A stretch of 64,000 bases of DNA, taken from the NCBI GenBank assembly GCA_963770895.1, contig CAVYRF010000002.1:1792001-1856000 (forward strand). The letters run 5' to 3'. The position numbers were made by a program, and so were the translations under genes. This DNA is from an uncultured Acidobacteriota bacterium (GTDB lineage: Bacteria; Acidobacteriota; Thermoanaerobaculia; Multivoradales; UBA5704). Positions within the stretch are counted from its first letter, which is position 1. Each line of letters begins with the position of its first letter. The notes beneath the pieces were generated by a model that worked only from the letters and a program-made list of their open reading frames with translations, was not told the origin of the DNA and made no database searches. Below, in pieces: positions 28,317 to 41,403 of this stretch.

Positions 28317-30245
28317 ATGTGCGGCATCGCCGGCACCTACGATCCGCGCGGCCGGCGCGCCGATGCGGCGGCGGTCGAGCGGATGGCCGGCGCGCTGGCG
28401 CACCGCGGCCCCGATTCCGCCGGCGCGTTTCAAGCCGACGGAGTGATGCTCGGTTTCCGCCGCTTGAGCATCATCGACCTGGCGGGCGGCGACCAGCCGC
28501 TGTTCAGCGAAGACGGCAACCTGGTCCTGGTCTGCAACGGTGAGATCTACGACTACCGCGAGCTGACGGCCGAGCTCACCGCCAAGGGCCACGTCTTTCG
28601 CACCCACAGCGACGTCGAAGTGCTGCTCCACCTGTACGAAGAGCACGGCGCCGACCTGCTTCACCGCATCAACGGCCAGTTCGCCTTCGCGCTCTACGAC
28701 CGGCGCGCGCGCAGCCTGCTTTTGGCGCGCGACCCCTGCGGCATCAATCCGCTCTTCTATACCGTCGTCGACGGCCAGCTGATCTTCGCCTCCGAGATCA
28801 AGGCGATCCTGGAGCACCCGCTGGCGCCGCGCCAGGTCGATCTCACCGGCCTGGACCAGGTCCTCACCTTTCCGGGCCTGGTGGCGCCCCGCACCTTCTT
28901 CAAAGGCATCCGCTGCCTGCCGGCGGGCCACCTGCTGCGCGCCGGCGCGGACGGGGTGGAAGAGCGCGAATATTGGGATCTCACCTATCCCGAGGCAGCG
29001 GACCATGAGCCCGCCGTTTCCGCGGCGCACGAACGAGACTACGTCGACGGCCTGCGCGAGCGGCTGCGCCAGGCCGTGCGCTACCGCCTGCAGGCCGACG
29101 TGCCGGTGGGCCTGTACCTGAGCGGCGGCCTCGACTCTTCGCTCATCGGCGCCCTGATCCATGAGATCTCCGCCACGCCGCGGCACTCCTTTTCGATCGC
29201 CTTCCCCGACCAGGAGATCTCCGAGGCCCGCCACCAACGCCTTATGGCCCAGGCGCTGGGCACGACGCACCACGAGATCTGGTTCGATTGGAGCGAGATC
29301 GCCAACCGCCTGACGCGCATGGTCCACCACTGCGAATGCCCGGTCAAGGAAGCCTTCGACACCTGCGCCCTGGCCCTCTCCGCGGCCGCGCGCCAGGCCG
29401 GCGTGCCGGTGGTGCTCGCCGGCCAGGGCGCCGACGAGCTCTTTGCCGGCTACATGGGCTATCGCTTCGACCAGGCCGGCCTGCGCGCCGCCCGCGCCCA
29501 GACCCTCGAAGGCGCGCTCGAAGACGAGATCCGCGAACGCCTCTGGGGTGAAGCCGGCCTGTTCTATGAAACGGATTTCCTGCCCCTGCGAGACCTCAAG
29601 GCCGCCCTGTACGCCGCCGATCTGGGCGCCAACCTGGCCGATTTCGACTGCACCAACCAACCCCTGCTCGACGGCAGCAAGCTGCGCGGGCGCCACTACG
29701 TCCACCAGCGCTCCTACCTGGACTTCAAGCTGCGCCTGGCCGAGCACCTGCTATCCGAGCACGGCGACCGCATGGTGCTCGCCAACTCGGTCGAGGGCCG
29801 CTATCCCTTCCTGGACCGTGAAGTCGTGCGCTTCGCCACCACCATCCCCCCCACCCTCAAGCTCAACGGCATGCAGGAAAAATACATCGTCAAGCAGGCC
29901 GCCCAAGGCCTGGTGCCGCGCGAAATCATCCAGCGCGAAAAGTTCGGCTTCCGCGCCCCAGGCACCCCCTACCTGCTGCAGCAGCGCATCGAATGGATCG
30001 AAGACCTCCTGTCCGCCGACCGCATCCGCGCCCAGGGCCTCTTCAACCCCGCCACCGTGGAAAACCTCAAGCACCGCTACCGCCAGCCCAGCTTCACCCT
30101 CAACCCACACCTCGAAACCGATCTCCTGATGATCGTCCTCACCTGCGGCCTCCTGGTCGACCAATTCAACCTCTCCACCCCCGCCCCCGCCCCCCGACCC
30201 GCCCTGACCGCCGCCGCCGCCGCGTTCGCCGCCGACGACCTCTAG
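28317..30245 (+). CDS. asnB: Asparagine synthase (glutamine-hydrolysing) family amidotransferase
   Basis: Starts MCGIAG; RGPD, RRLSIID, NGEIY, LSGGLDSS, GQGADELFAGY and VEGRYPFLD. May be a cluster tailoring enzyme rather than housekeeping AsnB. Confidence 0.9.
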   Translation: MCGIAGTYDPRGRRADAAAVERMAGALAHRGPDSAGAFQADGVMLGFRRLSIIDLAGGDQPLFSEDGNLVLVCNGEIYDYRELTAELTAKGHVFRTHSDVEVLLHLYEEHGADLLHRINGQFAFALYDRRARSLLLARDPCGINPLFYTVVDGQLIFASEIKAILEHPLAPRQVDLTGLDQVLTFPGLVAPRTFFKGIRCLPAGHLLRAGADGVEEREYWDLTYPEAADHEPAVSAAHERDYVDGLRERLRQAVRYRLQADVPVGLYLSGGLDSSLIGALIHEISATPRHSFSIAFPDQEISEARHQRLMAQALGTTHHEIWFDWSEIANRLTRMVHHCECPVKEAFDTCALALSAAARQAGVPVVLAGQGADELFAGYMGYRFDQAGLRAARAQTLEGALEDEIRERLWGEAGLFYETDFLPLRDLKAALYAADLGANLADFDCTNQPLLDGSKLRGRHYVHQRSYLDFKLRLAEHLLSEHGDRMVLANSVEGRYPFLDREVVRFATTIPPTLKLNGMQEKYIVKQAAQGLVPREIIQREKFGFRAPGTPYLLQQRIEWIEDLLSADRIRAQGLFNPATVENLKHRYRQPSFTLNPHLETDLLMIVLTCGLLVDQFNLSTPAPAPRPALTAAAAAFAADDL

Positions 30246-32248
30246 ACGACCTCTGGCCGCGCAGGTTGACCAGCAACTGCGGGACGGCACCGAAGAGCCG
30301 CGGCAAAGGTGGCGACGCTTGCGCGCATGGTGGCCACCATTTGGCGATCGAACGCAGCAGCCATGTCGCCGGCTTGCTGCGTCAGCAACCAGGACCTGTG
30401 CGAGCGGGACCTCTTCGCGCACACCAGGCGGACTACCGGCAGCAACACGCCCTCCAGAAGCGGCAGTGCGATACCGGCAGCTTCGCCCAGGCGCGCGAGG
30501 TACGCCCGCGAGGGAACCAGGCTGCCTGTCTCGTAGCGGCTGATCGTAGTACGGTCGATCGACACAGCAGCGCTCATCGCCTCCTGGCTGAATCCGGGGA
30601 TTGCGCGCAACACCCGCACCAGGACGCTCGTTTCGTCGCGCGAGACCGTATCGGTCCGTTCCAAACGGGGGACGTGCGCCATGCGCGCGCTACCGTCCGG
30701 CGTCAGGGGCTGGAAGACCCAGTTCCCCGCCCGCAAAAGCTCCAGGTCTTCGTGCAGCTGCCATAGCTTCTCAGCCGACTGGCATAGCTCGTCAAGGCTG
30801 GCCGTCAGGGCTCGCGAGCCCCATCTCGATTTGACGGTTGCGAAGATTGTTTGCACCAAGGCACCGATCTTCGCGCTCCACTCCCTGCCGTCGAAGTAGA
30901 GAACCGCCAGATCGATCGACACCAGCACCGACTCGTAGTGACTGGTGAAATGCTGGATTTCCGTATGCACCCATTCCAAATCGGCGATCGCTTGTCGGCG
31001 ATCGCCCTGACCTGCGGCCACGCGTGCCTTGAGCCACAATTGCCGGAGGATGTCCAACGTAGACTCACCGGCAAGCGCACCACCCACGCTCTGAAGGCAC
31101 TCGTCGGCCTCTCGACAGCGCCCGATCTGGCACAGACACGCAACCTGGTGATACTGCACCAGCCACTGCATTTCTGGCAGCAACTCGACCAGGGGCGCCG
31201 CCGCGTCCAGCGCGGCGAGCGCATCGTCGACCCGGCCGGCGAGCCGTAAAGCCGTCGCCTTCTTGACCAGCAGCCGGCCAGAATCCTCCGCGGGAGCAAG
31301 GGCAATGGCCCGGTCGAGCAGGCACACGGCGGCAGGCCAGGCTTTTTGCGCCAGGCGGAGCGATGATTCCAGGTCGAGGAGCCGCCATTCTGGCAGCGTG
31401 AATTCCGCGGCTTGATGACCTTCGCCCCACTGCCGCGTCGCAGCAGCCAATTCCGCGTCAGCCGCGGTGAGATCCCCTTTTGACCGATACGCATTTGCAA
31501 GGAATCCGCGCGCGTAGCCCTGCAGGCGCCGCAACCCGCCAGCGTCACCCCGCGCCAGCTGGGCTGCCCGCACGGACAGCTCAGCGAGCTGCATGGATTC
31601 CGTGACGCTGTGAGCGCCGGCGGCAACGCTCGCGTCGCACAGGCGCAGGCACATCGCCCAGGTTTGCAGGTGCAGACCGGTTTCCAATCGTTGGCGCCGC
31701 TCCCGATGGGTGAGCGTCGCCAGCACTCGCCAGTGTGCATCTGCATCCTGATGCGCCACTTCGGCGCGCCGCATCAGGATCGTAGCGGCGGCGTGCTCCT
31801 GCACAAGCTCCGCCAACGCAGGCAACATTTTTAATGTGAACGTATTGACCTGCTGCCGCTCGTCGTGGGTCAGCCCATCTGGCGGTACGGAGTCCGCCGG
31901 GGCGGCTACGGTAGACAACAGCGCGCAAGTCGCGACCGCGCACTCGCCAAGTCCCTCCCCGGCGCCCATGACCGCGGCGAAGTCATCGAAGCGAGCCCGC
32001 GTCAAGCGTATCTTGCCATTTTCGTATTGCGAGAGCTGGCTGGTGGCGAAGCCGCTGGCCTTGGAAAGCTCGATTTGCGACCATCCCATGACGATCCGCA
32101 AGGTCGAAAGAGCAAGGCCCAACGTTGGACGATTGCGGCGTGTCAGCCCCTGCACCACTGCGCGCGGGGCAGCATCGGGCCGGTTGCGGTGACGCCCCAG
32201 GACAGTGCTCAAGGCGGGGGATAGCATTTTCGATCTACTCGCCCTCAT
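30242..32248 (-). CDS. XRE-HTH / TPR / XRE-HTH regulator
   Basis: N-terminal HTH (WSQIELSKASGFATSQLSQYENG), central TPR-like helices (LQGYARGFLANAYR), C-terminal HTH (FSQEAMSAAVSIDRTTISRYETG). Start may be 32227. Confidence 0.8.
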   Translation of the reverse strand: MRASRSKMLSPALSTVLGRHRNRPDAAPRAVVQGLTRRNRPTLGLALSTLRIVMGWSQIELSKASGFATSQLSQYENGKIRLTRARFDDFAAVMGAGEGLGECAVATCALLSTVAAPADSVPPDGLTHDERQQVNTFTLKMLPALAELVQEHAAATILMRRAEVAHQDADAHWRVLATLTHRERRQRLETGLHLQTWAMCLRLCDASVAAGAHSVTESMQLAELSVRAAQLARGDAGGLRRLQGYARGFLANAYRSKGDLTAADAELAAATRQWGEGHQAAEFTLPEWRLLDLESSLRLAQKAWPAAVCLLDRAIALAPAEDSGRLLVKKATALRLAGRVDDALAALDAAAPLVELLPEMQWLVQYHQVACLCQIGRCREADECLQSVGGALAGESTLDILRQLWLKARVAAGQGDRRQAIADLEWVHTEIQHFTSHYESVLVSIDLAVLYFDGREWSAKIGALVQTIFATVKSRWGSRALTASLDELCQSAEKLWQLHEDLELLRAGNWVFQPLTPDGSARMAHVPRLERTDTVSRDETSVLVRVLRAIPGFSQEAMSAAVSIDRTTISRYETGSLVPSRAYLARLGEAAGIALPLLEGVLLPVVRLVCAKRSRSHRSWLLTQQAGDMAAAFDRQMVATMRASVATFAAALRCRPAVAGQPARPEVV

Positions 32249-32496
32249 AGCATCGGCTTTCCAGCATGGCGGTATTCACCTCGACGGCTGCCTGCGCAAA
32301 CGAGCATGTGCCGCCGCCTGGGCTGGGCGCGAGCGGGTCGGCTAGCCGGCAGCATGCAAAGGACTCCAGAAATCGCTTAAGATGGGTATTCCTTGACGGA
32401 TGGTCGCAACACGGACAACCAACGGCCCTGGTGTCCCGCACCGGAAGCGGTGAGCACGTGTTTGTTGAGGATGCACTTCGATGACGTGGAGGTCGC

Positions 32497-34332
32497 ATGG
32501 TGGGAGGAGACAGGCCACCCTGGGCTAAGGCGCTGAAGGTCTTACGGCTGATCCGACGCTGGAACCGGGCACAGCTGGGGCGGGCCGCGGGCCTTTCGGC
32601 GAGCGCGATCACGCGCTATGAGAAAGGGAACCGCCGGCCGGAAGAGGTGCGCAGCCTGGTATCTGTCATGGGCTACCCGCCCCTGCTTTGGGAGCGTACC
32701 CTGGCGTTCGTAGCCTCTACGGAAGGCGAGCATCCGAACCAGACGGCGCCGGGTGAAACAGCGCCCTCGCCCCGCATCGACGCGCTGGTGGGTGACGCCG
32801 GCCGCTGGGTGAACGAGGTGGTGCGCGAGGCCCTGACCGGGGCGTTCGACGCCCTTGGTGGGACGGGCGCGCGGCCACGGCTCAGGACGCCGCCGATCGG
32901 CGAGGCGCTGGCGATCCTCCGCGCGATCCGCGGCTGGGAGCGCAAGGACCTGGCGGATGCCGTTGCCAGGCCGGAGGAAACCGTCGCCAACTACGAGTAC
33001 GGCAAGACGAAGCCCAAACTGCTGGTCCTCCAGGAGCTGCTTTCAGCGATGGGCTTCTCGTTGGCCGTCTTCGAGTGTGCGCTGGACTTCGTACGCACAG
33101 CGCAGGAGTCGCGCAGAACCCTTGCCGGCGGTGGGCGGGTACTGTCCTGGCAGGTGGAAGAGGTCGCCGCCCAGAAAGCCCGCCGCATCGAGGAGTTCAC
33201 CCGCACCGAGCTCAGCGCCCTGACGGTGGCGGCGCAGGTTCTGGCCTCGCGCGAAGCGGCACCGGTGGCGTGGAAGGCGTTCTCGGCCTGCCCCGAAGTC
33301 AGCCGGCTGGAGCTGGTGCGCCAGGTGGCCGAGTTTCAGACGGCTGGGTTCTGTGAGTTGCTGTGCGAAGAAAGTCTCGCCGCGGCGAGCGACAGCGCGA
33401 GCCGGGCGCGGCAGCTGGCCCAGCTGGCCGAGGCCACGGCCGAGCTGGCCGAGGGGGGACAGGCCTTCCGCTCACGCCTGCGCGGCTATGCCGGCGCCCA
33501 CCTCGCCAATGCCGAGCGGGTGGCTGGCCGCGATCTGCCGGCTGCCGAGGAGACGCTGGAGCGCGCCTTGGCGGCCTGGGACGCCGGTGACGGCGCCGAT
33601 TCCGGCCTGCTCAACGCGGCGCGGGTGTGCGGCCTCACCGCCTCGCTGCGGCGGGCACAACGGCGCTTGCCCGAGGCTCTGGCGGCGCTCGATGAAGGGC
33701 TCAAGATCGACCGCTGGGGAGAAACCCCCACCCTGCTGCTCGCCAAGGCGCGCGCCCTCGTCGAGTTGGGCGAGTACGGGGCTTCGATCGAGCAGTTGCG
33801 GGCCGCGGCGCCGTGGGTCCACGGCGAGCGCGAGCCGCGCAAGCTCTTTGTGATCGAGAATCTGCTGGTGTCCAACCTGTGCCGCCTGGGGCAGTTCGCC
33901 GCCGCCGAGCGGCGGTTGCCCGGACTGCGGCAGCTGGCGCTGCCCAACCGGCTCGACCTGCTGCGGGCAGCCTGGCAAACCGGCATCGTCGCGGCCGGTC
34001 TGGGGCGGGCTGACGAGGCGCTTGCCATCCTGGAGCAGGTGCGCACCGATTTCATCGCTACAGAGAACTTCTACGTTGCAGCGCTGGTCACTCTGGAGCT
34101 GGCGGAGGTACACGCCGGCCTGGGCCACACGGCCGAGGTCAAGGAGTTGGCTCGCAAGTCGGCGCCGGTGTTCGAGAACCAGCAGGTGCATTGCGAGGCG
34201 CAGCGGGCGCTGGCGCTGTTCCGCCAAGCGGCCGAGGAGGAGAAGGTCACCGGCGGGCTGCTTCGCCAGCTCATCGTCTACCTCCATCGTGCCCGGCACA
34301 ATCCGCAGCTGTGCTTCGCCACCGCCGCATGA
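32497..34332 (+). CDS. Tandem XRE-HTH x2 plus TPR regulator
   Basis: HTH1 WNRAQLGRAAGLSASAITRYEKG; HTH2 WERKDLADAVARPEETVANYEYG; C-terminal TPR-like region; GGAGG RBS upstream. Confidence 0.85.
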   Translation: MVGGDRPPWAKALKVLRLIRRWNRAQLGRAAGLSASAITRYEKGNRRPEEVRSLVSVMGYPPLLWERTLAFVASTEGEHPNQTAPGETAPSPRIDALVGDAGRWVNEVVREALTGAFDALGGTGARPRLRTPPIGEALAILRAIRGWERKDLADAVARPEETVANYEYGKTKPKLLVLQELLSAMGFSLAVFECALDFVRTAQESRRTLAGGGRVLSWQVEEVAAQKARRIEEFTRTELSALTVAAQVLASREAAPVAWKAFSACPEVSRLELVRQVAEFQTAGFCELLCEESLAAASDSASRARQLAQLAEATAELAEGGQAFRSRLRGYAGAHLANAERVAGRDLPAAEETLERALAAWDAGDGADSGLLNAARVCGLTASLRRAQRRLPEALAALDEGLKIDRWGETPTLLLAKARALVELGEYGASIEQLRAAAPWVHGEREPRKLFVIENLLVSNLCRLGQFAAAERRLPGLRQLALPNRLDLLRAAWQTGIVAAGLGRADEALAILEQVRTDFIATENFYVAALVTLELAEVHAGLGHTAEVKELARKSAPVFENQQVHCEAQRALALFRQAAEEEKVTGGLLRQLIVYLHRARHNPQLCFATAA

Positions 34333-34393
34333 CGAGGAGGGACCGAACAGAAAGAGTCCGATCCCTCGCTGCCTCGGCACCCGCGCTGCCGAG

Positions 34394-34417
34394 AGCCGCC
34401 CTGTCGCGTGGGCGGCT
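34394..34417. terminator. GC hairpin between convergent regulator and peptide genes
   Basis: AGCCGCCC-tgtcgcgt-GGGCGGCT, a perfect 8-bp stem with no U-tract. Related sequence recurs at about 34978-35001 and 37432-37460. Confidence 0.5.
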
Positions 34418-34434
34418 GCCGCTCGTGGGCGGAT

Positions 34435-34707
34435 TCAACCGCCGTAGGGATCGGCTGCTGATCCGTCGTCGGTTTGCGCGTTGGAAGAGGTGCTGGCCGG
34501 TCGCCGGATCGTCACCTTGGCAGGCGGTGCCGCGGTCGGCTCCAGCGGCGCCAGTTCGCCGGAGAGCCATCCCCAGAGCCGGATCAACGGCTCCCAGACC
34601 GCGGCGGGCGGCTTGCCCTGCGCCTGGAGCGGTGCGGCGAAGGATGCGGTGGAGGCCACCGTCAGGGCAAGGAGCAGGGCGAGGGCGATGCTGCGAGGAA
34701 CACGCAT
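34435..34707 (-). CDS. Small secreted peptide precursor 1 (90 aa, ends TDDGSAADPYGG)
   Basis: AAGGAG RBS before the ATG; signal peptide MRVPRSIALALLLALTVASTASFA; paralog of 35032-35304 with the frame conserved. Confidence 0.82.
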   Translation of the reverse strand: MRVPRSIALALLLALTVASTASFAAPLQAQGKPPAAVWEPLIRLWGWLSGELAPLEPTAAPPAKVTIRRPASTSSNAQTDDGSAADPYGG

Positions 34708-34875
34708 GCGGGACTCCTTCTGCAAAGGCGACGGCGACGCCAGCCGGAATGGCCGGCGCGGCGCCCCCCGAAAGCTAGGGTGCCCGTGCTGTCAAGGATG
34801 CGGCTGAAAGCACCCGTTTCTGTGGATCTTTTTGACGCCGCTCTGCCGGCAGTCCTTGGAGGAGCATCTTATGCT

Positions 34876-34980
34876 ATGCCAGCGAAGCGGGGGCGCAGCG
34901 ACGGGCTCGGCCTGGCACCGAGCTTTCTGCGCCAGCTCAAGGGCTGGAGCCAGGGGCAGGTGGCGACGGCGGCCGGCGCC
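34876..34980 (+). pseudogene. 5' stub of an XRE-TPR regulator
   Basis: MPAKRGRSDGLGLAPSFLRQLKGWSQGQVATAAG matches the first ~35 aa of 35467-37338, after which homology stops. Confidence 0.8.
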
Positions 34981-35031
34981 CTGTCGCGTGGAAGGCTCAG
35001 CCGGCGGGGCAGCTGGCGCTCGCAAGCGGAT

Positions 35032-35304
35032 TCAGCCGCCATAGGGGTCAGGTGCTGATCCCTCGTCGGTTTGCGGGTTGGAAGAGGTGCTGGCCGGCCG
35101 CTGGATCGCTCCCTTGGCAGGTTGTGCCGCGGTCGCATGCAGCGGCGCCAATTCGCCGGAGAGCCATCCCCAGAGCCTGGTCAACGGCTCCCAGACCGCG
35201 GCTGGCCGCTTGCTCTGTGCCTGGAGCGATGCGGCGAAGGATGCAGTGGCAGTCACCGTCAGGGCAAGGAGCAGGGCGAGGGCGATGCTGCGAGGGATAC
35301 GCAT
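35032..35304 (-). CDS. Small secreted peptide precursor 2 (90 aa, ends TDEGSAPDPYGG)
   Basis: GGAAGGAG RBS; signal peptide MRIPRSIALALLLALTVTATASFA; divergent from the regulator at 35467. Confidence 0.82.
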   Translation of the reverse strand: MRIPRSIALALLLALTVTATASFAASLQAQSKRPAAVWEPLTRLWGWLSGELAPLHATAAQPAKGAIQRPASTSSNPQTDEGSAPDPYGG

Positions 35305-35466
35305 GCGGGGCTCCTTCCGCGGAGGCGACGGCGATGCCGGCCGGAATAGCCGGCACGGCGCCCCCGAAAGCCAGGGTGCCCGTGCTGTCAAGGATGCGGC
35401 TGAAAGCACCCGTCGCTATGGATCTTTTTGACGCCGCTCTGCCGGCAGTCCTTGGAGGAGCATCTT

Positions 35467-37338
35467 ATGCCAGCGAAGTTGGGACGCGGTGACGAGCTGG
35501 GCCTGGCGCTGAGCTTCCTGCGCCAGCTCAAGGGCTGGCGGCAGGGCCAGGTGGCGGCGGCGGCCGGCGTCAGCCCGAGCGGCCTCTCTGCCCTCGAACA
35601 GGGCAAACGGCGACAACCTACGTTGAGGACCCTCGGTCCGGTCGCGGCTGCCCTCGGAGTAGACCTGGCGCTCGTGGACGAGATGGTGGCTCTGATCAGG
35701 GAACTGCGCCGCGGTGAGACGCCGAAGGCGGCGCGGGGCGGCGCAAGCTGCGATGCGGTCTTGGGCGCCGAAGCTGCCTTTCGCCAGAGGGTGAGGGAAG
35801 CGGTGATCGCAACGACTTCCCACGCGCTGGATGGTTCCGGATGCGCTCACCAGCCGAGCCGGCCACGGCTGACGGAGGTCGGCAGCGCCGAGGAGCTGGG
35901 CCTGTCGCTCACTCTTTTGCGCCAGGTGCGGGGGTGGAGGCAAAAAGACCTGGTTGCCGCCTCCGGCATCTCATTGGAGGTGATCCAGGCGATCGAGCAA
36001 GGCCGGCGGCGCCGGCTGGCGTCGGAGCTGCCGGCCATCCTGGCCGCGCTCGGCATGGATATGAGCGCCCTGGCGAAGGTAGCGGCCCTGGTGCGCCAGG
36101 TGCGCCGCCATCAGGGGACGGCGCAGCTGCCCTCGACGCTGCCATGGGCCCCACCGCCTCACGGCTGGGCTCCCGCCCTGCGCCCGGATCTCGCCGGATT
36201 GCTGCACGCCGGGGTCCAGGCCGCTAGCGCGGTGCCGCCGGATCAGGGCGAGAGGCGCCGGCGTGTGGTCGCGCTCTTGCCAGTCCTTGCCGAGTGTCCG
36301 CCGGAAGCGCAGCGGGCCCTGGCCCGCTTGGTGGCAGATCTGCGCACGCCGGAAGCGTGTCAGCTGCTGTGCGAGGAGAGTCTTGCCGCGGCGGGCGACA
36401 GCGCGAGCCGGGCGCGGCAGCTGGCCGAGCTGGCCGGGATCACAGCTGAGCTGGCCGAAGGTGGCGACGCCTTCCGCTCACGCCTGCGCGGCTATGCCGG
36501 TGTCCACCTGGCCAACGCCGAGCGGGTGGCTGGCCGCGACCTGCCGGCTGCAGGGGAGACGCTGGAGCGCGCCCTGGCAGCCTGGGACGCCGGTGCCGGC
36601 GCCGACTCCGGGCTGCTCAACGCGGCGCGGGTGTGCGGCCTCACCGCCTCGCTGCGGCGGGCGCAGCGGCGCTTGCCGGAGGCTTTGGCGGCGCTCGACG
36701 AAGCGCTGAAGATCGACCGCTGGGGCGAAACTCCCACCCTGCTGCTCGGAAAGGCCCGCGCCCTCGTCGAGCTGGGCGACTACGAAGCTTCGATCGAGCA
36801 GTTGCGGGCGGCGGCGGCGAGCGTGGAAGGCGAGCGCGAGCCGCGCAAGCCTTACCTGATCGAGAACCTGCTGGTGTCCAACCTGTGCCGCCTGGGGCAG
36901 TTCGGCGCCGCCGAGCGGCGGTTGCCCGCGTTGCGGCAGCTGGCGCTGCCCAACCGGCTCGATCTGCTGCGGGTGGCCTGGCAAACCGGCACCGTTGCGG
37001 CCGGTCTGGGGCGCACCGACCAGGCGCTTGCCGTCCTGCTGCAGGTGCGCGCCGACTTCATCGCCACGGACAACTTCTACGTTGCAGCGCTGGTGACTCT
37101 GGAGCTGGCGGAAGTACACGCCGGCCTGGGCCACACAGCCGAGGTCAAGGCGTTGGCCCGCGAGTCGGCGCCGGTGTTCGAGAACCAGCAGGTGCATCGC
37201 GAGGCGCAGCGGGCGCTGGCGCTGTTCCGCCAGGCAGCCGAGGAGGAGAGGGCCAGCGGCGAGCTGCTCCGCCAGCTCATCGTCTACCTCCACCGTGCAC
37301 GGCACGATCCGCAGCTGAGCTTCGCCGCGAGGGCATGA
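35467..37338 (+). CDS. Tandem XRE-HTH x2 plus TPR regulator
   Basis: GGAGGAG RBS; HTH1 WRQGQVAAAAGVSPSGLSALEQG; HTH2 WRQKDLVAASGISLEVIQAIEQG; TPR half nearly identical to that of 32497-34332. Confidence 0.87.
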   Translation: MPAKLGRGDELGLALSFLRQLKGWRQGQVAAAAGVSPSGLSALEQGKRRQPTLRTLGPVAAALGVDLALVDEMVALIRELRRGETPKAARGGASCDAVLGAEAAFRQRVREAVIATTSHALDGSGCAHQPSRPRLTEVGSAEELGLSLTLLRQVRGWRQKDLVAASGISLEVIQAIEQGRRRRLASELPAILAALGMDMSALAKVAALVRQVRRHQGTAQLPSTLPWAPPPHGWAPALRPDLAGLLHAGVQAASAVPPDQGERRRRVVALLPVLAECPPEAQRALARLVADLRTPEACQLLCEESLAAAGDSASRARQLAELAGITAELAEGGDAFRSRLRGYAGVHLANAERVAGRDLPAAGETLERALAAWDAGAGADSGLLNAARVCGLTASLRRAQRRLPEALAALDEALKIDRWGETPTLLLGKARALVELGDYEASIEQLRAAAASVEGEREPRKPYLIENLLVSNLCRLGQFGAAERRLPALRQLALPNRLDLLRVAWQTGTVAAGLGRTDQALAVLLQVRADFIATDNFYVAALVTLELAEVHAGLGHTAEVKALARESAPVFENQQVHREAQRALALFRQAAEEERASGELLRQLIVYLHRARHDPQLSFAARA

Positions 37339-37392
37339 GGGTCATGCAAGCACCTGGCGGCCAAGCGCGGTCCATGCCCGTCACCGGTGCCG

Positions 37393-37534
37393 CCTGAATA
37401 GCGTATGCAGGCGGAGTGCATTTTTGATCTCGAGCCGCCCTGTCGCGTCGAAGGCTCAGCGGTCCGCGCCCGTCCGTGGTGCCACTTTTTGTCCCCCTGA
37501 ATATCGTATGCAGGCCAGGTATATTTTGATCTCG
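37393..37534. promoter_or_regulatory. Two ~40-bp direct repeats, each with an imperfect palindrome (candidate operators)
   Basis: CCTGAATAgcgTATGCAGG...TTTTGATCTCG at 37393-37432 and CCTGAATAtcgTATGCAGG...TTTTGATCTCG at 37496-37534. Confidence 0.55.
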
Positions 37535-37625
37535 CCGCTCGGTCGCCCGCTGGCCATTTTGGCGGTCCCGGCGACGGAGCTGACCGCGGGCGGACTGCGC
37601 CCGCTCCGCCCTGGTAGGATTGGGC

Positions 37626-38195
37626 ATGCAGCCGCGAAGCCTGATCTCGCCGGAAGGGTACAACCCCCGCGCCGTCGCCGTCCGCGCCCTGGCCGCCCAG
37701 CTGGACCCTCTCCTCAGATCGCTCGCGGCGCGGATCAAGGACGCGACCACGCCCGATCTGGAGTGGCAGCCGCGGCCCGGCACCAACACCATCGGCATGC
37801 TCCTGGCCCACATGGCCGTGACCGAAACCTTCTGGATGCAGGCCGGCGCCCAAGGCATCGACTCCCACCAGGAAGTCGACACGATCGTCCACGCGACGCT
37901 CGGCATCCACATCGACGACGACGGCCTCCCGCTGGCGCCGCACGCATCCCATCCGCCAACCCTCGCCGGCAAGACCGCGGCCGACTACCTTGACCTGCTG
38001 CACCGAGCGCGCCGGGCAACCCACGCCACCCTGCGCGCCTGGGACGATGCAGACCTGGAGCGCATCGTGACCGTCGATGGCAACCAGCTCACCCGCGGCT
38101 GGATCCTCTTTCACATCGTCGAACACTTCGCCCAGCACACCGGCCAGATCGCCCTCCTCGCGAGCCTGCGCCAGCGCACCCTCGCCGCCGGCTGA
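37626..38195 (+). CDS. DinB/DUF664-like protein
   Basis: NTIGMLLAHMA near the N-terminus and ILFHIVEHFAQHTGQI near the C-terminus (DinB His pattern). Confidence 0.85.
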   Translation: MQPRSLISPEGYNPRAVAVRALAAQLDPLLRSLAARIKDATTPDLEWQPRPGTNTIGMLLAHMAVTETFWMQAGAQGIDSHQEVDTIVHATLGIHIDDDGLPLAPHASHPPTLAGKTAADYLDLLHRARRATHATLRAWDDADLERIVTVDGNQLTRGWILFHIVEHFAQHTGQIALLASLRQRTLAAG

Positions 38196-38292: not shown

Positions 38293-39129
38293 CTACGACA
38301 GATCCGTTCTAGTGAGATCCAGCAGGGCATTCCTGACAGCCCGGCGAAAGCGCCTATGTGCCTTTCCACTCCGGCCGTGCAGGACGAGGATCTTGCGATT
38401 TGCAAGGGTGTGCCGCAGAGCAGATTTCTGATCGAGATCGGACGCGCAGGAAGGGAACGGACCTTCGAACCATTCGCGGAGAGACGCTTCGTCCGCGATG
38501 AGGAGGAGTCGGGCGGGGAGGAGTTCTGGGAGAGTCTGCAATTCCCAGAGCAGGCCTTTGCCGCCAGGGCGCGATATGTCGATCACGGCGGCGTGGCAGT
38601 GCGGTGCAATGGATAAAATGAGAGGTTGCCAATCATCGTCACTCTGCACCTTGAGGCGCACGACCTGCTGCACGCTGAGCCACGCCTTGGTAGCGGGGCT
38701 CTTCGAAGTCACGGCAAGAACGCTCCGAGAGGCGAGGAATCGTCGCCAGGTGTCGGTGAAGAACAGGGCGCAGCCTCCGACCACGGTCGAGGCGATTTCT
38801 GCCCGCAGCCAGCGAGGGTGCCACAAGAATTCAACGCTCAAGAAAATGAGCGTTGACAAGGTAGTCAGGCCCAAGAACGGGGCTACAAGTTCGATGATCG
38901 AGATGGGGGTCGAGGCGGCGTCGGCCAGTGCGACGACCTGAAACGTCGTACCCAAGGCGTTGACGACGACGTCCTGGAATCTGGCGCCAGATGTGGCATC
39001 GTCGTTCGGGCGCAGGAAGAGGATCGTGCGGGTCTGGCTTGGTTTCGGCCAGCGGTGGTTCTCATTCAAGGGCCAGTCCAGCAACAGCTCGGGACCCGCA
39101 GGTGGTGTCGCAATCGACGTGAGCCGCAA
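38293..39129 (-). CDS. Hypothetical membrane protein, possibly 5'-truncated
   Basis: 278-aa ORF with lower GC than its neighbours, two hydrophobic segments, ILFLRP and GLLWEL motifs; weak TTG start. Confidence 0.5.
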   Translation of the reverse strand: MRLTSIATPPAGPELLLDWPLNENHRWPKPSQTRTILFLRPNDDATSGARFQDVVVNALGTTFQVVALADAASTPISIIELVAPFLGLTTLSTLIFLSVEFLWHPRWLRAEIASTVVGGCALFFTDTWRRFLASRSVLAVTSKSPATKAWLSVQQVVRLKVQSDDDWQPLILSIAPHCHAAVIDISRPGGKGLLWELQTLPELLPARLLLIADEASLREWFEGPFPSCASDLDQKSALRHTLANRKILVLHGRSGKAHRRFRRAVRNALLDLTRTDLS

Positions 39130-39220: not shown

Positions 39221-41293
39221 TCAATGCTCGGCGGCGCGGAGCAGCCGATCGAGGGTGGCGGATTCCACCGGCTTTACCAGGTGGACGTCGAAGCCGGCTT
39301 CCTGGGAGCGCTGCTTGTCTTCGTCGTGACCCCAGCCGCTGGCGGCGATGAGCAGGATGTGGCTGCCCCAGTCTTCGGCGCGGATGCGGCGCGCCAGGTC
39401 GTGGCCGTTGAGCTTGGGCATGGCGACGTCGAGCACCATCACGTCGGGGCGAAAGTCGCGCGCGATGGCCAGGGCCTGCTCGCCGTCGTGAGCGGTGCGC
39501 GTCTGGTGTCCCAGCAGGCTGAGCACCAGCGACAGGCTCTCCGCTGCGTCGACGTTGTCGTCCGCCACCAGGATGCGGCGGCCGGGGCTTGGCGGCGCGG
39601 TGGGGGCGAGCGCCGGCGCCGGGGAGGTGGCCGGCCGCGCCGCTGCCGTGGGCGCCAGCGGCAGGTGGACGCGAAATTCGCTGCCGGCGCCGGGTCCGTC
39701 GCTGTGCGCCTCGATGGTGCCGCCGTGCATCTCCACCAGCCGCCGCACGATGGTCAGGCCGATGCCCAGGCCGCCGCCGACCTGGGCGTGCGAGCGGTCG
39801 ACCTGCGCGAACATGTCGAAGATGCCGCTGAGCTTGGCGGCGGGGATGCCGATGCCGTTGTCGCGCACGGTGACCACCGCCGTTGCGCCGTCCTGGCGCG
39901 CCAGGGTGAGCTCGATGCGGCCGCCGTGCGGCGTGAACTTGGCGGCGTTGTTGAGCAGGTTGGCGAACACCTGCACGATGCGCGTCGGATCGGCTTCCAG
40001 CACCAGCTCTTCGCCGGGGAGCGTGACCGCCAGGGTGTGGCCGCACTGTTCGATCAGCGGCCGGCTGGTTTCGAGCGCGTCGCGCAAGGCGCCGGCGAGC
40101 GGCAGCCGGGTGCGCCGCAGGTCGACGATGCCGCGGTTCACCCGCGACAGGTCCAGCAGGTCGTCGATCAGCCGCACCATCTGAGCCAGCTGCCGCTCCA
40201 TCGTTTCCCGCGCCATCACCGCGACGTTGCCGTCGCCGGGAGCCATCTTGAGCAGTTCCAGGGCGTTGCGGATGGGAGCCAGGGGGTTGCGCAGCTCGTG
40301 CGCCAGGGTGGCCAGAAACTCGTCCTTGAGGCGGCTCGCGTCGCTCAGCTGCGCCGCGATCTGGCGAAAGCGGGCTTCGCTGGCCTGGAGGGCGACGTCG
40401 CCGCGCATGCGCTCGGTGACGTCGGCGCCTTCGACGAAGATGCCCGCCACCCTGCCGTCGCTGTCCTTGATCGGCTGGTAGACGAAGTCCACGTACCGCT
40501 CGCTGACCGCGCCGCCCGGCGTCGTCTGGACGGCGTACTTGGCGCCCCTGGCCACGTAGGCCGTGCCGCTGGTGAAAACCTCGTCGAGCAGGGTCAGGTA
40601 GCCCTGCTCCACCGCGTCCGGCAGGGCTTCGGCGACCGTCCGGCCCAGAACGGGCCGATGCCCGATCAGCTGCAGGTAGCTGGGATTGGCCAGCTCGATC
40701 CTGTGTTCGGCGCCGCGCAGCATCGCCATGAAGGTCGGCGCCTGTTCGAACAGCTGGGACAGCTGGTCGCGTTCCAGGGCCAGCCGGCGAGCCATGAGGA
40801 TCTGCTCGGTCGTCTCGGTGCAGACGACCAGGATGCCGCCGATGCCGCCGGGTGCGGTCAGCTCGTCGATCGGGCTGTAGCTGTACGTCCAGTAGACGTC
40901 TTCGCGCCGCCCATGGCGGGTGATCGGCACCAGGTGATTGACCTGCCAGGTGGCGCCGCCGCCGCTGGCGACCTGCTCGATCTGCGGGCCGATGATGTCC
41001 CAGATCTCGGCCCAGACTTCGCGCGCCGGCCGGCCCAGCGAGCCGGGGTGGCGCTCCGGTCCGATCGATTCCCGGTAGGCGTCGTTGTACAGGCAGGCCA
41101 GGTCAGGCCCCCACCAGATGTACATCGGGTGCCCGGTATTGAGCATGAGGCGCACCACCGTGCGCAGCGATTGCGGCCAGCCGGCGGGCGGGCCGAGCGA
41201 CGACGCGGTCCAGTCGTGCGCGCGCATCAACGCCCCCATCTCGCCGCCGCCGCTCAGAAAGCTGGGCTCGGTCGTCTCGGGTCCCACACTCAT
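39221..41293 (-). CDS. PAS-domain hybrid sensor histidine kinase/response regulator
   Basis: HDWTASSLGPPAGWPQSL N-terminus, PAS folds, H-box LAHELRNPL, NLLNNAAKFT, DNGIGI, GGLGIGL and a C-terminal receiver (LVADDN, LDVAMP, HLVKPV). Confidence 0.93.
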   Translation of the reverse strand: MSVGPETTEPSFLSGGGEMGALMRAHDWTASSLGPPAGWPQSLRTVVRLMLNTGHPMYIWWGPDLACLYNDAYRESIGPERHPGSLGRPAREVWAEIWDIIGPQIEQVASGGGATWQVNHLVPITRHGRREDVYWTYSYSPIDELTAPGGIGGILVVCTETTEQILMARRLALERDQLSQLFEQAPTFMAMLRGAEHRIELANPSYLQLIGHRPVLGRTVAEALPDAVEQGYLTLLDEVFTSGTAYVARGAKYAVQTTPGGAVSERYVDFVYQPIKDSDGRVAGIFVEGADVTERMRGDVALQASEARFRQIAAQLSDASRLKDEFLATLAHELRNPLAPIRNALELLKMAPGDGNVAVMARETMERQLAQMVRLIDDLLDLSRVNRGIVDLRRTRLPLAGALRDALETSRPLIEQCGHTLAVTLPGEELVLEADPTRIVQVFANLLNNAAKFTPHGGRIELTLARQDGATAVVTVRDNGIGIPAAKLSGIFDMFAQVDRSHAQVGGGLGIGLTIVRRLVEMHGGTIEAHSDGPGAGSEFRVHLPLAPTAAARPATSPAPALAPTAPPSPGRRILVADDNVDAAESLSLVLSLLGHQTRTAHDGEQALAIARDFRPDVMVLDVAMPKLNGHDLARRIRAEDWGSHILLIAASGWGHDEDKQRSQEAGFDVHLVKPVESATLDRLLRAAEH

Positions 41294-41403
41294 TCCTAAA
41301 TCCCTTTGTGATAGCAATTTACCTTACCACAACGAGACGGTGCGGGGCCGTGGCCGGGGTGCGCCGGCGACGCTTCGCGGAGTGCGCTATCGTCCCGAGC
41401 GAC

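Follow-up and report, generated by a model that had tools for sequence, protein, structure and literature searches.

Paired XRE-TPR regulators and small predicted exported peptides form a candidate RRNPP-like circuit in a diderm acidobacterium

In a 64,000-nucleotide stretch of DNA from an uncultured Acidobacteriota bacterium (contig CAVYRF010000002.1, positions 1,792,001 to 1,856,000; hereafter the window), three genes for regulators with XRE-type helix-turn-helix (HTH) and tetratricopeptide repeat (TPR) domains, named RegA, RegB and RegC, are interleaved with the genes of two small pro-peptides with predicted export signals, Pep1 and Pep2. We assign this locus to a family of self-contained peptide/receptor modules, and to the reading that it works as an RRNPP-like peptide/receptor circuit in a diderm acidobacterium we give an even chance. 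A wider proposal, of which we are somewhat less confident, is that an entire Thermoanaerobaculia family uses a large network of mutually orthogonal peptide “languages”, this genome having about 16 of the modules; in it, DPxG peptides (linear with a DPYGG end or as disulfide loops) released from Sec-exported multi-cassette precursors would be read by paired double-HTH/nine-TPR receptors that share a gene-converted ligand domain. Gene anatomy, coding conservation, linkage and orientation, co-duplication of the gene triplets, the TPR fold and concerted evolution are what we observed. The locus is arranged as follows.

30242-32248, minus strand: RegA, 668 aa; XRE-HTH, TPR and a second XRE-HTH near the C-terminus (open reading frame (ORF) call and Pfam)
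32249-32496: divergent intergenic region between RegA and RegB
32497-34332, plus strand: RegB, 611 aa; two N-terminal XRE-HTH and a TPR domain; convergent with Pep1
33352-34320, plus strand: block of RegB (C-terminal TPR domain) that is 90% identical in DNA to RegC 36358-37326 (blastn)
34333-34434: GC-rich hairpins between the convergent stops of RegB and Pep1
34435-34707, minus strand: Pep1, predicted exported pro-peptide of 90 aa; signal peptide, WEPLIRLWGWLSG motif and C-terminal cassette TDDGSAADPYGG
34708-34875: second (duplicated) copy of the divergent promoter region (alignment)
34876-35058, plus strand: stub, 60 aa; about 34 RegC-type codons, then read-through into the duplicated 3' flank
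35032-35304, minus strand: Pep2, predicted exported pro-peptide of 90 aa, 82% identical to Pep1; C-terminal cassette TDEGSAPDPYGG
35305-35466: divergent promoter region common to Pep2 and RegC, with conserved blocks (alignment)
35467-37338, plus strand: RegC, 623 aa; two N-terminal XRE-HTH, disordered linker and a domain of about nine TPRs
36358-37326, plus strand: block of RegC (residues ~298-620) that is 90% identical in DNA to RegB 33352-34320 and aligns to Rap/NprR

A preliminary description of this DNA had listed three XRE-TPR regulators, a stub and two paralogous 90-aa genes, and ORF calls and Pfam placed all of them where it had put them. Its mention of double HTH domains was likewise borne out, since every regulator contains two XRE-type HTH stretches (Pfam HTH_3/HTH_31). 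Both stretches are N-terminal in RegB and RegC, and the best ones in RegA are HTH_3 at residues 54-95 and HTH_31 at 543-593. TPR matches (TPR_12 and others) were found in RegB and RegC, and no transmembrane-like segment was seen in the regulators. The ORF of RegC opens at 35428; its start is likely the ATG at 35467, which is preceded by GGAGGAG.

Judged by their conservation, the 90-aa peptide ORFs are real genes; chance ORFs are excluded because the Shine-Dalgarno (SD) sequence, the motifs and the reading frame are conserved. Pep1 and Pep2 have GAAGGAG about 7 nt upstream of the ATG, Arg in the n-region, a hydrophobic core of about 15 residues and an A/S-x-A site, which together with the cassette account for the ribosome binding site, signal peptide and conserved C-terminus ascribed to them earlier. 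All signal-peptide calls are those of our own heuristic (Arg n-region, hydrophobic core, A/S-x-A site). Eight DNA copies of the peptide gene were recovered, four from the same genome and four from the sister genome G005. All eight have an AGGAG-type SD 6-8 nt before the ATG and a frame that is intact despite indels, and dN/dS among them is 0.25-0.83, below 1 in each of the 28 pairs. W38, P40, L41, W45, W47, L48, S49, D80, G82 and DPYGG are invariant. An alignment of 11 proteins has a signal-peptide-like N-terminus, a Trp-rich motif (W-E/Q-P-L-x2-L/I-W-x-W-L-S) and a C-terminus of the form D-x-G-x3-DPYGG, the latter two invariant. Within the DPYGG subfamily the signal peptide is conserved as well, with R2, A8, L11 and L13 invariant and M1, R5, I7, L9 and L12 nearly so. 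The cassette reads TD(D/E)GxxxDPYGG in the window peptides; the last ~16 residues are tandemly doubled in three of the G005 copies, own-genome paralogs carry 2-4 Cys-bracketed units, and pro-peptide length across the family runs from 90 to 165 aa. Such multiplication of the cassette is what a released peptide would show. The peptides had no significant match to a known family in Pfam or NCBIfam, where only weak ones appeared (E 0.058 or weaker, one at E 0.093), and the ESM Atlas returned Acidobacteriota clusters only, weakly (0.90-0.91). No fused or longer form of the peptides was found, which is weak evidence.

The linkage of these peptide genes to XRE-TPR regulators exceeds chance. DPYGG-type genes were found at eight loci: the window, C2:502.5k and C2:365k in the same genome, two G005 contigs and three metagenome contigs. 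RegB/RegC-type coding sequence lies within ~200 bp at all eight, at C2:365k in the form of gene fragments only. The genome that contains the window encodes 37 XRE-TPR paralogs, which together make up ~2% of it. Nineteen small ORFs emerged from a genome-wide scan for SD, signal peptide and the motif DP[NDYL]G; for 13 of them an XRE-TPR gene from the set of 37 is at most 1 kb away (one of the 13 falls within an ORF call of such a gene that is too long), three lie beside weaker TPR matches or regulator fragments, and the last three look like false positives. A small ORF with SD, signal peptide and xPxG was present within 1.5 kb of 23 of the 37 regulators, as against 6 of 300 control ORFs of similar size; with the motif requirement dropped, the counts were 28/37 and 73/300. 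A further module at C1:516.5k, missed by the first scan, was found by eye, and about 16 separate peptide/regulator sets are present in this genome. The same gene kind recurs in other genera. Eight tandem regulator pairs in the genomes G011, G013 and G018 were picked with the regulator profile only by their gap of 500-580 bp, and each gap holds an opposite-strand peptide ORF with SD, signal peptide, aromatic motif and one to four GCx(I/L)DPxGxC-like cassettes. At least 13 of 18 cassette loci adjoin a regulator among the matches listed. The check set beforehand, whether peptide homologs sit beside XRE-TPR genes across genomes, thus came out in favor of the linkage, both at the flanked DPYGG loci and in the Cys-type modules of other genera. 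The regulator family itself occurs in 21 of 121 genomes of the class (by family: f1 3/3, f5 4/4, f2 1/1, f14 12/28, f8 0/18). The only constant partners of the peptide gene are two regulators; the modules contain no immunity, export or maturation genes.

Several related arrangements were seen in the same genome. In a deeper XRE/TPR clade, the small predicted exported ORF precedes one regulator in the same orientation and is not enclosed by a pair (C1:559738-560070, C1:1345620-1346021, C2:2873717-2874142, C2:1041810-1042094 and C2:3000095-3000385), and its end motif varies (IDPNG, EPNGEC, NPDGGPC, MDPNGGGG, MDPDGAL). A collapsed copy of the window array at C2:364966-366015 (L016) consists of the last 248 bp of RegA, a peptide gene, and the RegC 3' end (~440 bp) plus the flank beyond it. 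Its peptide gene is intact and 79-83% identical to Pep1/Pep2; the SD is kept and the native promoter is lost. An all-alpha protein of ~430-470 aa has eight copies in this genome, most of them inside or beside XRE-TPR/peptide clusters and none in the window (C2:4273122-4274528, 3843843-3845210, 498698-499993, 491310-492515, 2879754-2881094 and three more). Pfam gave no match for three of the four copies scanned and a sub-threshold TPR_12 in one. Four of the five copies seen end in LTDRLLRxxGExEDPLG plus a few residues, in which DPLG echoes the DPxG of the peptides.

The preliminary description had presented the locus as an array of repeating units. The features it named are present; the array resolves into one ancestral unit plus a tandem duplication. 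Direct repeats at 34410-34978 and 35007-35569 are 87-96% identical with a period of 591-597 bp (blastn), in segments of 88% (34410-34709/35007-35306), 96% (34765-34874/35361-35470) and 87% (34875-34978/35466-35569). Each repeat contains the peptide gene together with its promoter region and 3' flank, as well as ~100 bp from the start of RegC. A 597-bp tandem duplication thus gave Pep1 and the stub, and the ancestral unit has RegB and Pep in convergent and Pep and RegC in divergent orientation. Because the repeat carries the 5' end of RegC, the stub is explained as a RegC-type 5' end that reads on into the duplicated flank; it matches the RegC N-terminus with 76% identity over 37 aa, the match covering about the first 34 stub residues. 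By this alignment the stub is a by-product of the duplication. The sister genome G005 has the ancestral order, with a RegB ortholog (68%), a RegC ortholog (64%) and a peptide gene between them; a second peptide gene follows RegC there.

The DPYGG type is rare and belongs to a wider cassette family. Only five such proteins, including the two from the window, were found in a collection of 5.8 billion, and a profile search of 1.84 billion representatives gave 21 matches at E <= 0.001. One of these, P0021 (883 aa), is an unrelated repeat protein and was rejected as spurious, and P0024 matches in its N-terminal part only. The matches grade from DPYGG ends into the Cys-bracketed form T-D-E-G-C-x-(I/L)-D-P-x-G-x-C, so the window peptides can be understood as a linear, Cys-less variant of a loop cassette. 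The most conserved parts across this wider family are the Trp residues and the C-terminal G...DP.G motif, rather than the signal peptide. In a sample of the phylum, the DPYGG type occurred in 2 of 301 genomes (best 16 candidates scored per genome). Among 61 relatives, 13 gave a match at E <= 0.01, convincing only in the own genome and one sister genome; 6 of 11 weak loci inspected in relatives were signal-peptide-only or in-gene matches. A strict DNA pattern of the cassette, run against the 121 genomes of the class, had 20, 14 and 2 matches in the G011/G013/G018 set, which represents three other genera of the same family, and one match each in 2 of the 117 genomes from other families; the reversed-pattern control had 0. 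The pattern had no match in the own genome, where the Cys cassettes have another spacing.

The regulators bear the marks of evolution as pairs. In a tree of 35 paralogs, window RegB groups with C2:500317 and window RegC with C2:502963. The topologies of the RegB and RegC clades are congruent, as are those of the two regulator clades of KPQNxC-type modules, and therefore each Reg-Pep-Reg triplet duplicates as one unit. RegB and RegC of one module share, over their last ~340 residues, 85-88% identity in the window, 93-97% in G005 and 66-71% at the 500k locus, as opposed to 18-30% for the N-terminal halves; orthologs across the own genome and G005 reach only 72-81% in the C-terminal block. From these identities, concerted evolution is seen to keep the TPR domain of RegB and RegC nearly identical. 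Two receptors with different DNA-binding heads would thus be held to one ligand domain. In the Cys-type modules, within-module identity showed no clear excess over between-module identity, and the effect was seen only in the DPYGG clade.

The homogenized block coincides with the part of the regulator over which Rap and NprR can be aligned in structure. An AlphaFold 2 model of RegC residues 140-623 (pLDDT 86, pTM 0.76) has an HTH, a disordered linker and 18 helices, equivalent to ~9 TPRs. The block corresponds to model residues ~159-481; Rap aligns over 155-484 and NprR over 149-484. LGN, Rap and PlcR are among the top Foldseek matches. A search against 48,161 representative chains, made independently of Foldseek, gave the order LGN (Z 21.1), Pins (20.4), RapI (20.2, root-mean-square deviation (rmsd) 4.6, 299 aligned), NprR-NprX (19.7), Cut9 (19.6), APPBP2 (19.6) and phage Rap with peptide (19.5). 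Among re-scored Foldseek matches, phi3T Rap with its pheromone reached Z 22.0 (rmsd 4.1, 298 aligned) and apo NprR 21.0. PlcR scored 16.5 and AimR 14.1-15.4 in these searches. In this model the closest bacterial structures to the RegC TPR domain are RRNPP receptors. Co-folding of the RegC TPR domain with mature Pep2, a check suggested at the outset, gave a score of 0.36 (runs 0.31, 0.51 and 0.36) versus 0.00 for the best of three controls, and the runs share at least 37% of contacts; the pass is a weak one, however, with a partner pLDDT of 36-38. Among 80 solved complexes 58 reach the mark, as do 2 of 110 mismatched pairs, and passes at 0.60 or under comprise only 7 of the 80 solved complexes plus both passing mismatches.

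RegA is present in the genome in four gene-sized copies (the others at C2:1905121-1907214, 4274525-4276666 and 5559411-5561789). Their DNA identity is 83-85% and does not extend past the gene ends (blastn). Residues 53-453 of RegA are similar to C1:516985-518613, and for residues 535-652 the counterpart is the first ~117 residues encoded by the next gene, C1:514921-516429. The C1 pair still encloses a peptide gene; RegA has none of its own. RegA looks like a collapsed module.

Between the genes, the region 34333-34436 folds on the minus strand with -57.4 kcal/mol (z -3.43; 1 of 200 shuffles was as good), and the second copy of the hairpin is not significant (z -0.77). The divergent promoter region of the Pep/RegC type, which is common to the peptide gene and the divergent regulator, spans ~160 bp. 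Blocks of 35305-35466 are kept in the sister genome and in a paralogous locus of 39% identity (alignment). A consensus scan found 0 sigma-70-like sites, and none in the RegA/RegB intergenic region, 32249-32496, where no inverted repeat was found either; the Pep2/RegC region has a single short palindrome only.

The host is diderm, as its LpxC gene and five genes of the Omp85 family indicate, and the loci of the sister genome are labeled Thermoanaerobaculia, Acidobacteriota. The earlier expectation of a lipopolysaccharide-containing, probably acidobacterial host agrees with these genes and with the relatives, which are Acidobacteriota of the class Thermoanaerobaculia. In a diderm host a secreted peptide would therefore enter the periplasm, where Cys oxidation is possible, and must cross the outer membrane. 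Export, cleavage, re-import and binding of the peptide, and an effect on target genes, are what we infer. A module would consist of a Sec-exported pro-peptide, built of signal peptide, Trp-rich amphipathic motif and one to four TD(D/E)G-x3-DP-x-G cassettes, and of two cytoplasmic XRE-HTH/TPR regulators that flank the peptide gene, one convergent and one divergent with a common promoter region of ~160 bp. In most modules two Cys bracket the cassette, which could close as a disulfide loop in the periplasm; in the subfamily of the window the cassette is linear with a DPYGG end. The pro-peptide would be exported and cut, and the cassette peptide would build up outside the cell. It may then return to the cytoplasm, for instance through an Opp-type permease; two SBP_bac_5 (Opp/Dpp-type) genes are present in the genome, and import via binding proteins of this type is possible. 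Inside, the cassette peptide would bind the Rap/NprR-like TPR domain common to RegB and RegC and switch the two DNA-binding heads. One head probably feeds back on the Pep/RegC promoter, and the other may act on further targets, possibly the adjacent NRPS-PKS (nonribosomal peptide synthetase-polyketide synthase) cluster, with or without RegA.

A number of observations weigh against a peptide/receptor circuit of this kind. A disulfide loop is an unusual cargo for Opp, and the peptide must cross the outer membrane twice. With 90-165 aa, the pro-peptides exceed the usual length of those in RRNPP systems. Paralogous modules keep the DPxG core instead of diversifying it, and any specificity would therefore lie in the x positions. 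No sequence link to RRNPP was found in Pfam, in NCBIfam, where only generic HTH/TPR models matched, or among PDB sequences; in a phmmer search of the PDB, RegC matched HTH proteins only, and RegA had no significant match (E 0.37 or more) and no TPR receptor. For nine of the 37 XRE-TPR paralogs, including the four RegA copies, no nearby candidate peptide gene appeared even when the motif was not required. The fold match is not discriminating, as LGN (Z 21.1-22.5) and APC subunits (~19) score alike and the best bacterial matches come within about 1 Z of LGN, and due to this tie with eukaryotic TPR proteins the fold alone proves nothing; the co-fold, too, is only a weak pass. The conserved promoter boxes have no occurrence in the genome beyond the two window copies at <= 4 substitutions, so that no regulon can be proposed, and scans for conserved boxes, palindromes and consensus promoters revealed no operator or further target. 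The idea of an RRNPP-like system therefore stands in part: peptide linkage, diderm host and a TPR fold that is as near to Rap/NprR as to any solved structure speak for it, but membership of RRNPP at the level of sequence does not hold.

Other explanations were weighed against the same evidence. The small exported protein could itself be the regulated product, that is, an antimicrobial, metal-binding, adhesive or envelope-acting DPxG-loop peptide, and the XRE-TPR pair its dedicated transcription factors that sense something else. The divergent promoter shared by the peptide gene and RegC and conserved across paralogs fits this explanation; a peptide that acts on membranes or folds outside the cell could also have the Trp-rich helix and Cys-bracketed loops, and a DPxG core that is conserved between modules and not diversified fits as well. 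We consider it unlikely nonetheless. The modules lack immunity, export and maturation genes and have two regulators as their only constant partners, and a mere product would leave unexplained why the TPR domains of RegB and RegC are homogenized while the DNA-binding halves diverge and why ~16 peptide/regulator sets are kept up in one genome. The weak co-fold pass versus zero-scoring controls also points away from it. Alternatively, the TPR domain might bind the un-exported precursor or the cleaved signal peptide and report the state of secretion or of the envelope, not cell density. The pheromones that PrgX senses in enterococci come from signal peptides, the DPYGG subfamily has an unusually well conserved signal peptide, and such sensing needs neither outer-membrane crossing nor import. 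We nevertheless regard it as quite improbable, because conservation in the wider family is strongest in G...DP.G and Trp instead of the signal peptide, and the multiplication of cassettes points to the C-terminal unit as the active part.

A maturation pathway for ribosomally synthesized and post-translationally modified peptides (RiPPs), for instance graspetides, would make the Trp-rich motif a leader recognition helix and the Thr/Asp-rich cassettes the cores, and multi-core precursors are typical of graspetides. In G005, an ATP-grasp gene lies 1.2-2.6 kb past both peptide arrays and matches models of ribosomal-peptide maturases below their cut-offs (TIGR04187, 230 and 221 bits, cut-off 350), with an S41-type peptidase beside one of the two arrays. 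These G005 loci are L013:6476-7606, L014:3554-4672 and L014:1165-3792, all on the minus strand; the array-side peptidase has 875 aa and a weak CPAF-like match. We see only a slim chance for this explanation. At E <= 0.001, neither ATP-grasp nor S41 homologs turned up in the 64-kb window, at three metagenome loci or at nine other own-genome module loci; the six ATP-grasp homologs that this genome does encode are at other places, a Sec signal peptide, called in all copies by the heuristic, is at odds with cytoplasmic maturation, and the single match to an NCBIfam RiPP model was non-significant (E 0.093). With no ATP-grasp gene at the module loci examined outside G005, a graspetide was rejected as the main explanation. 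Finally, the peptide ORFs might be chance frames in GC-rich DNA or decaying remnants of regulator duplications. Their GC3 of 0.74-0.79 is unremarkable, antisense ORFs are also open, part of the window array is a duplication by-product, and a collapsed copy exists at C2:365k. Set against this are the SD, signal peptide and motifs kept down to 28-39% identity with frame-preserving indels, the dN/dS below 1 in 28/28 pairs, and the same gene kind in 8/8 regulator-pair gaps of other genera, which leave a non-functional origin with next to no probability. A peptide/receptor circuit is the reading that we prefer.

The regulators adjoin what had been noted before as a lipopeptide cluster. Window positions 1-30245 hold a hybrid NRPS-PKS cluster, all on the plus strand, with NRPS genes of C-A-PCP-TE organization, a gene with an AMP-binding domain followed by KS-AT-KR-ACP, an ABC transporter, a MacB-type permease, a TauD-family dioxygenase and a luciferase-like monooxygenase. 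The cluster ends with a full-length AsnB-like asparagine synthase with an amidotransferase domain, and RegA is convergent with this gene. The regulators are adjacent to the cluster and may control it. Another RegA copy converges on an NRPS C-PCP gene. A CHAT gene and an RHS/C39 gene are found near two other modules, one with a RegA copy: beside the 3837k module lies the gene of an RHS-repeat protein with a C39 peptidase domain (C2:3847991-3851000), and beside the 5554k module that of a CHAT-domain protein (C2:5563766-5565412). Downstream of RegC the window encodes a DinB/MST-family protein (37620-38195, plus strand), a 278-aa ORF with no family match (38293-39129, minus strand) and a hybrid PAS histidine kinase with a receiver domain (39221-41317, minus strand).

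If the proposed circuit is real, a diderm phylum would for the first time be seen to have cytoplasmic peptide sensing of the RRNPP type, which could be of independent origin or represent the long-sought outgroup of the RRNPPA family, and some modules may gate neighboring NRPS/PKS clusters. Dozens of compact peptide/receptor modules in a hard-to-culture diderm soil phylum rich in silent biosynthetic clusters would amount to a new signaling vocabulary, and the cassette peptides and receptor domains would be handles for switching on the neighboring clusters. The modules would also be a natural experiment in the co-evolution of receptor pairs and ligands. They raise the question, testable with quite simple reagents, of whether imported ribosomal peptides serve as quorum signals in diderm bacteria.

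Searches of the literature that joined RRNPP with Acidobacteriota returned nothing, related work being on Gram-positive bacteria only, and none was found that joined biosynthetic gene clusters of Acidobacteria with XRE/TPR regulators. Thermoanaerobaculia together with quorum sensing and peptide gave only surveys that are unrelated by title and abstract. Multi-copy pheromone precursors such as yeast alpha-factor and some Phr pro-peptides hold several mature units per exported precursor. The organisms and receptors are unrelated to those described here, where the copies are often Cys-bracketed DPxG loops. Microviridin-type graspetides resemble our peptides in repeated C-terminal cassettes rich in Thr, Asp and Glu, in a helix-like motif upstream and, in one sister genome, in ATP-grasp genes near the arrays. 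They differ in that the precursor here has a Sec signal peptide (heuristic), that its constant neighbors are regulators and not enzymes, and that no ATP-grasp gene was present at the other loci examined. The TPR domain of LGN/Pins is the best structural match (Z 21.1-22.5, rmsd 4.5-4.7, 292-306 aligned) and binds extended peptides in its inner groove. It is eukaryotic, however, without an HTH and without a linked pro-peptide gene, and the likeness probably reflects the shared TPR superhelix only.

The closest parallels are the RRNPP/RRNPPA quorum-sensing systems of Bacillota (Rap-Phr, NprR-NprX, PlcR-PapR, PrgX, Rgg-SHP and AimR-AimP). Shared with them are a cytoplasmic receptor with an XRE-HTH followed by a TPR superhelix, an adjoining small gene for a predicted Sec-exported pro-peptide with a conserved C-terminal part, a TPR domain with structural alignments of ~290-300 residues to RapI, NprR and phage Rap (Z 19.5-22), and the nine-TPR layout of NprR, Rap and AimR. 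Passages of PMC12700828 distinguish HTH-9TPR and HTH-5TPR receptor classes and state that an outgroup obtained via remote structural homologs would help to root the RRNPPA family; RRNPP is treated as a Firmicutes/Gram-positive system in the relevant passages of PMC10075063. In contrast to the known systems, the modules described here have no sequence-level relation to RRNPP (Pfam, NCBIfam, PDB sequences), and their host is not a member of Bacillota; it is a diderm acidobacterium with LpxC and Omp85. They also have two receptors per peptide in a fixed convergent/divergent geometry, regulators of 611-668 aa of which RegB and RegC carry two HTH domains, and pro-peptides (90-165 aa) that combine a Trp-rich motif with 1-4 cassettes, most of them bracketed by Cys. 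The system is thus RRNPP-like on paper; it departs from the family in sequence homology and in taxon, and it adds twin receptors, double HTH domains and multi-cassette loop peptides.

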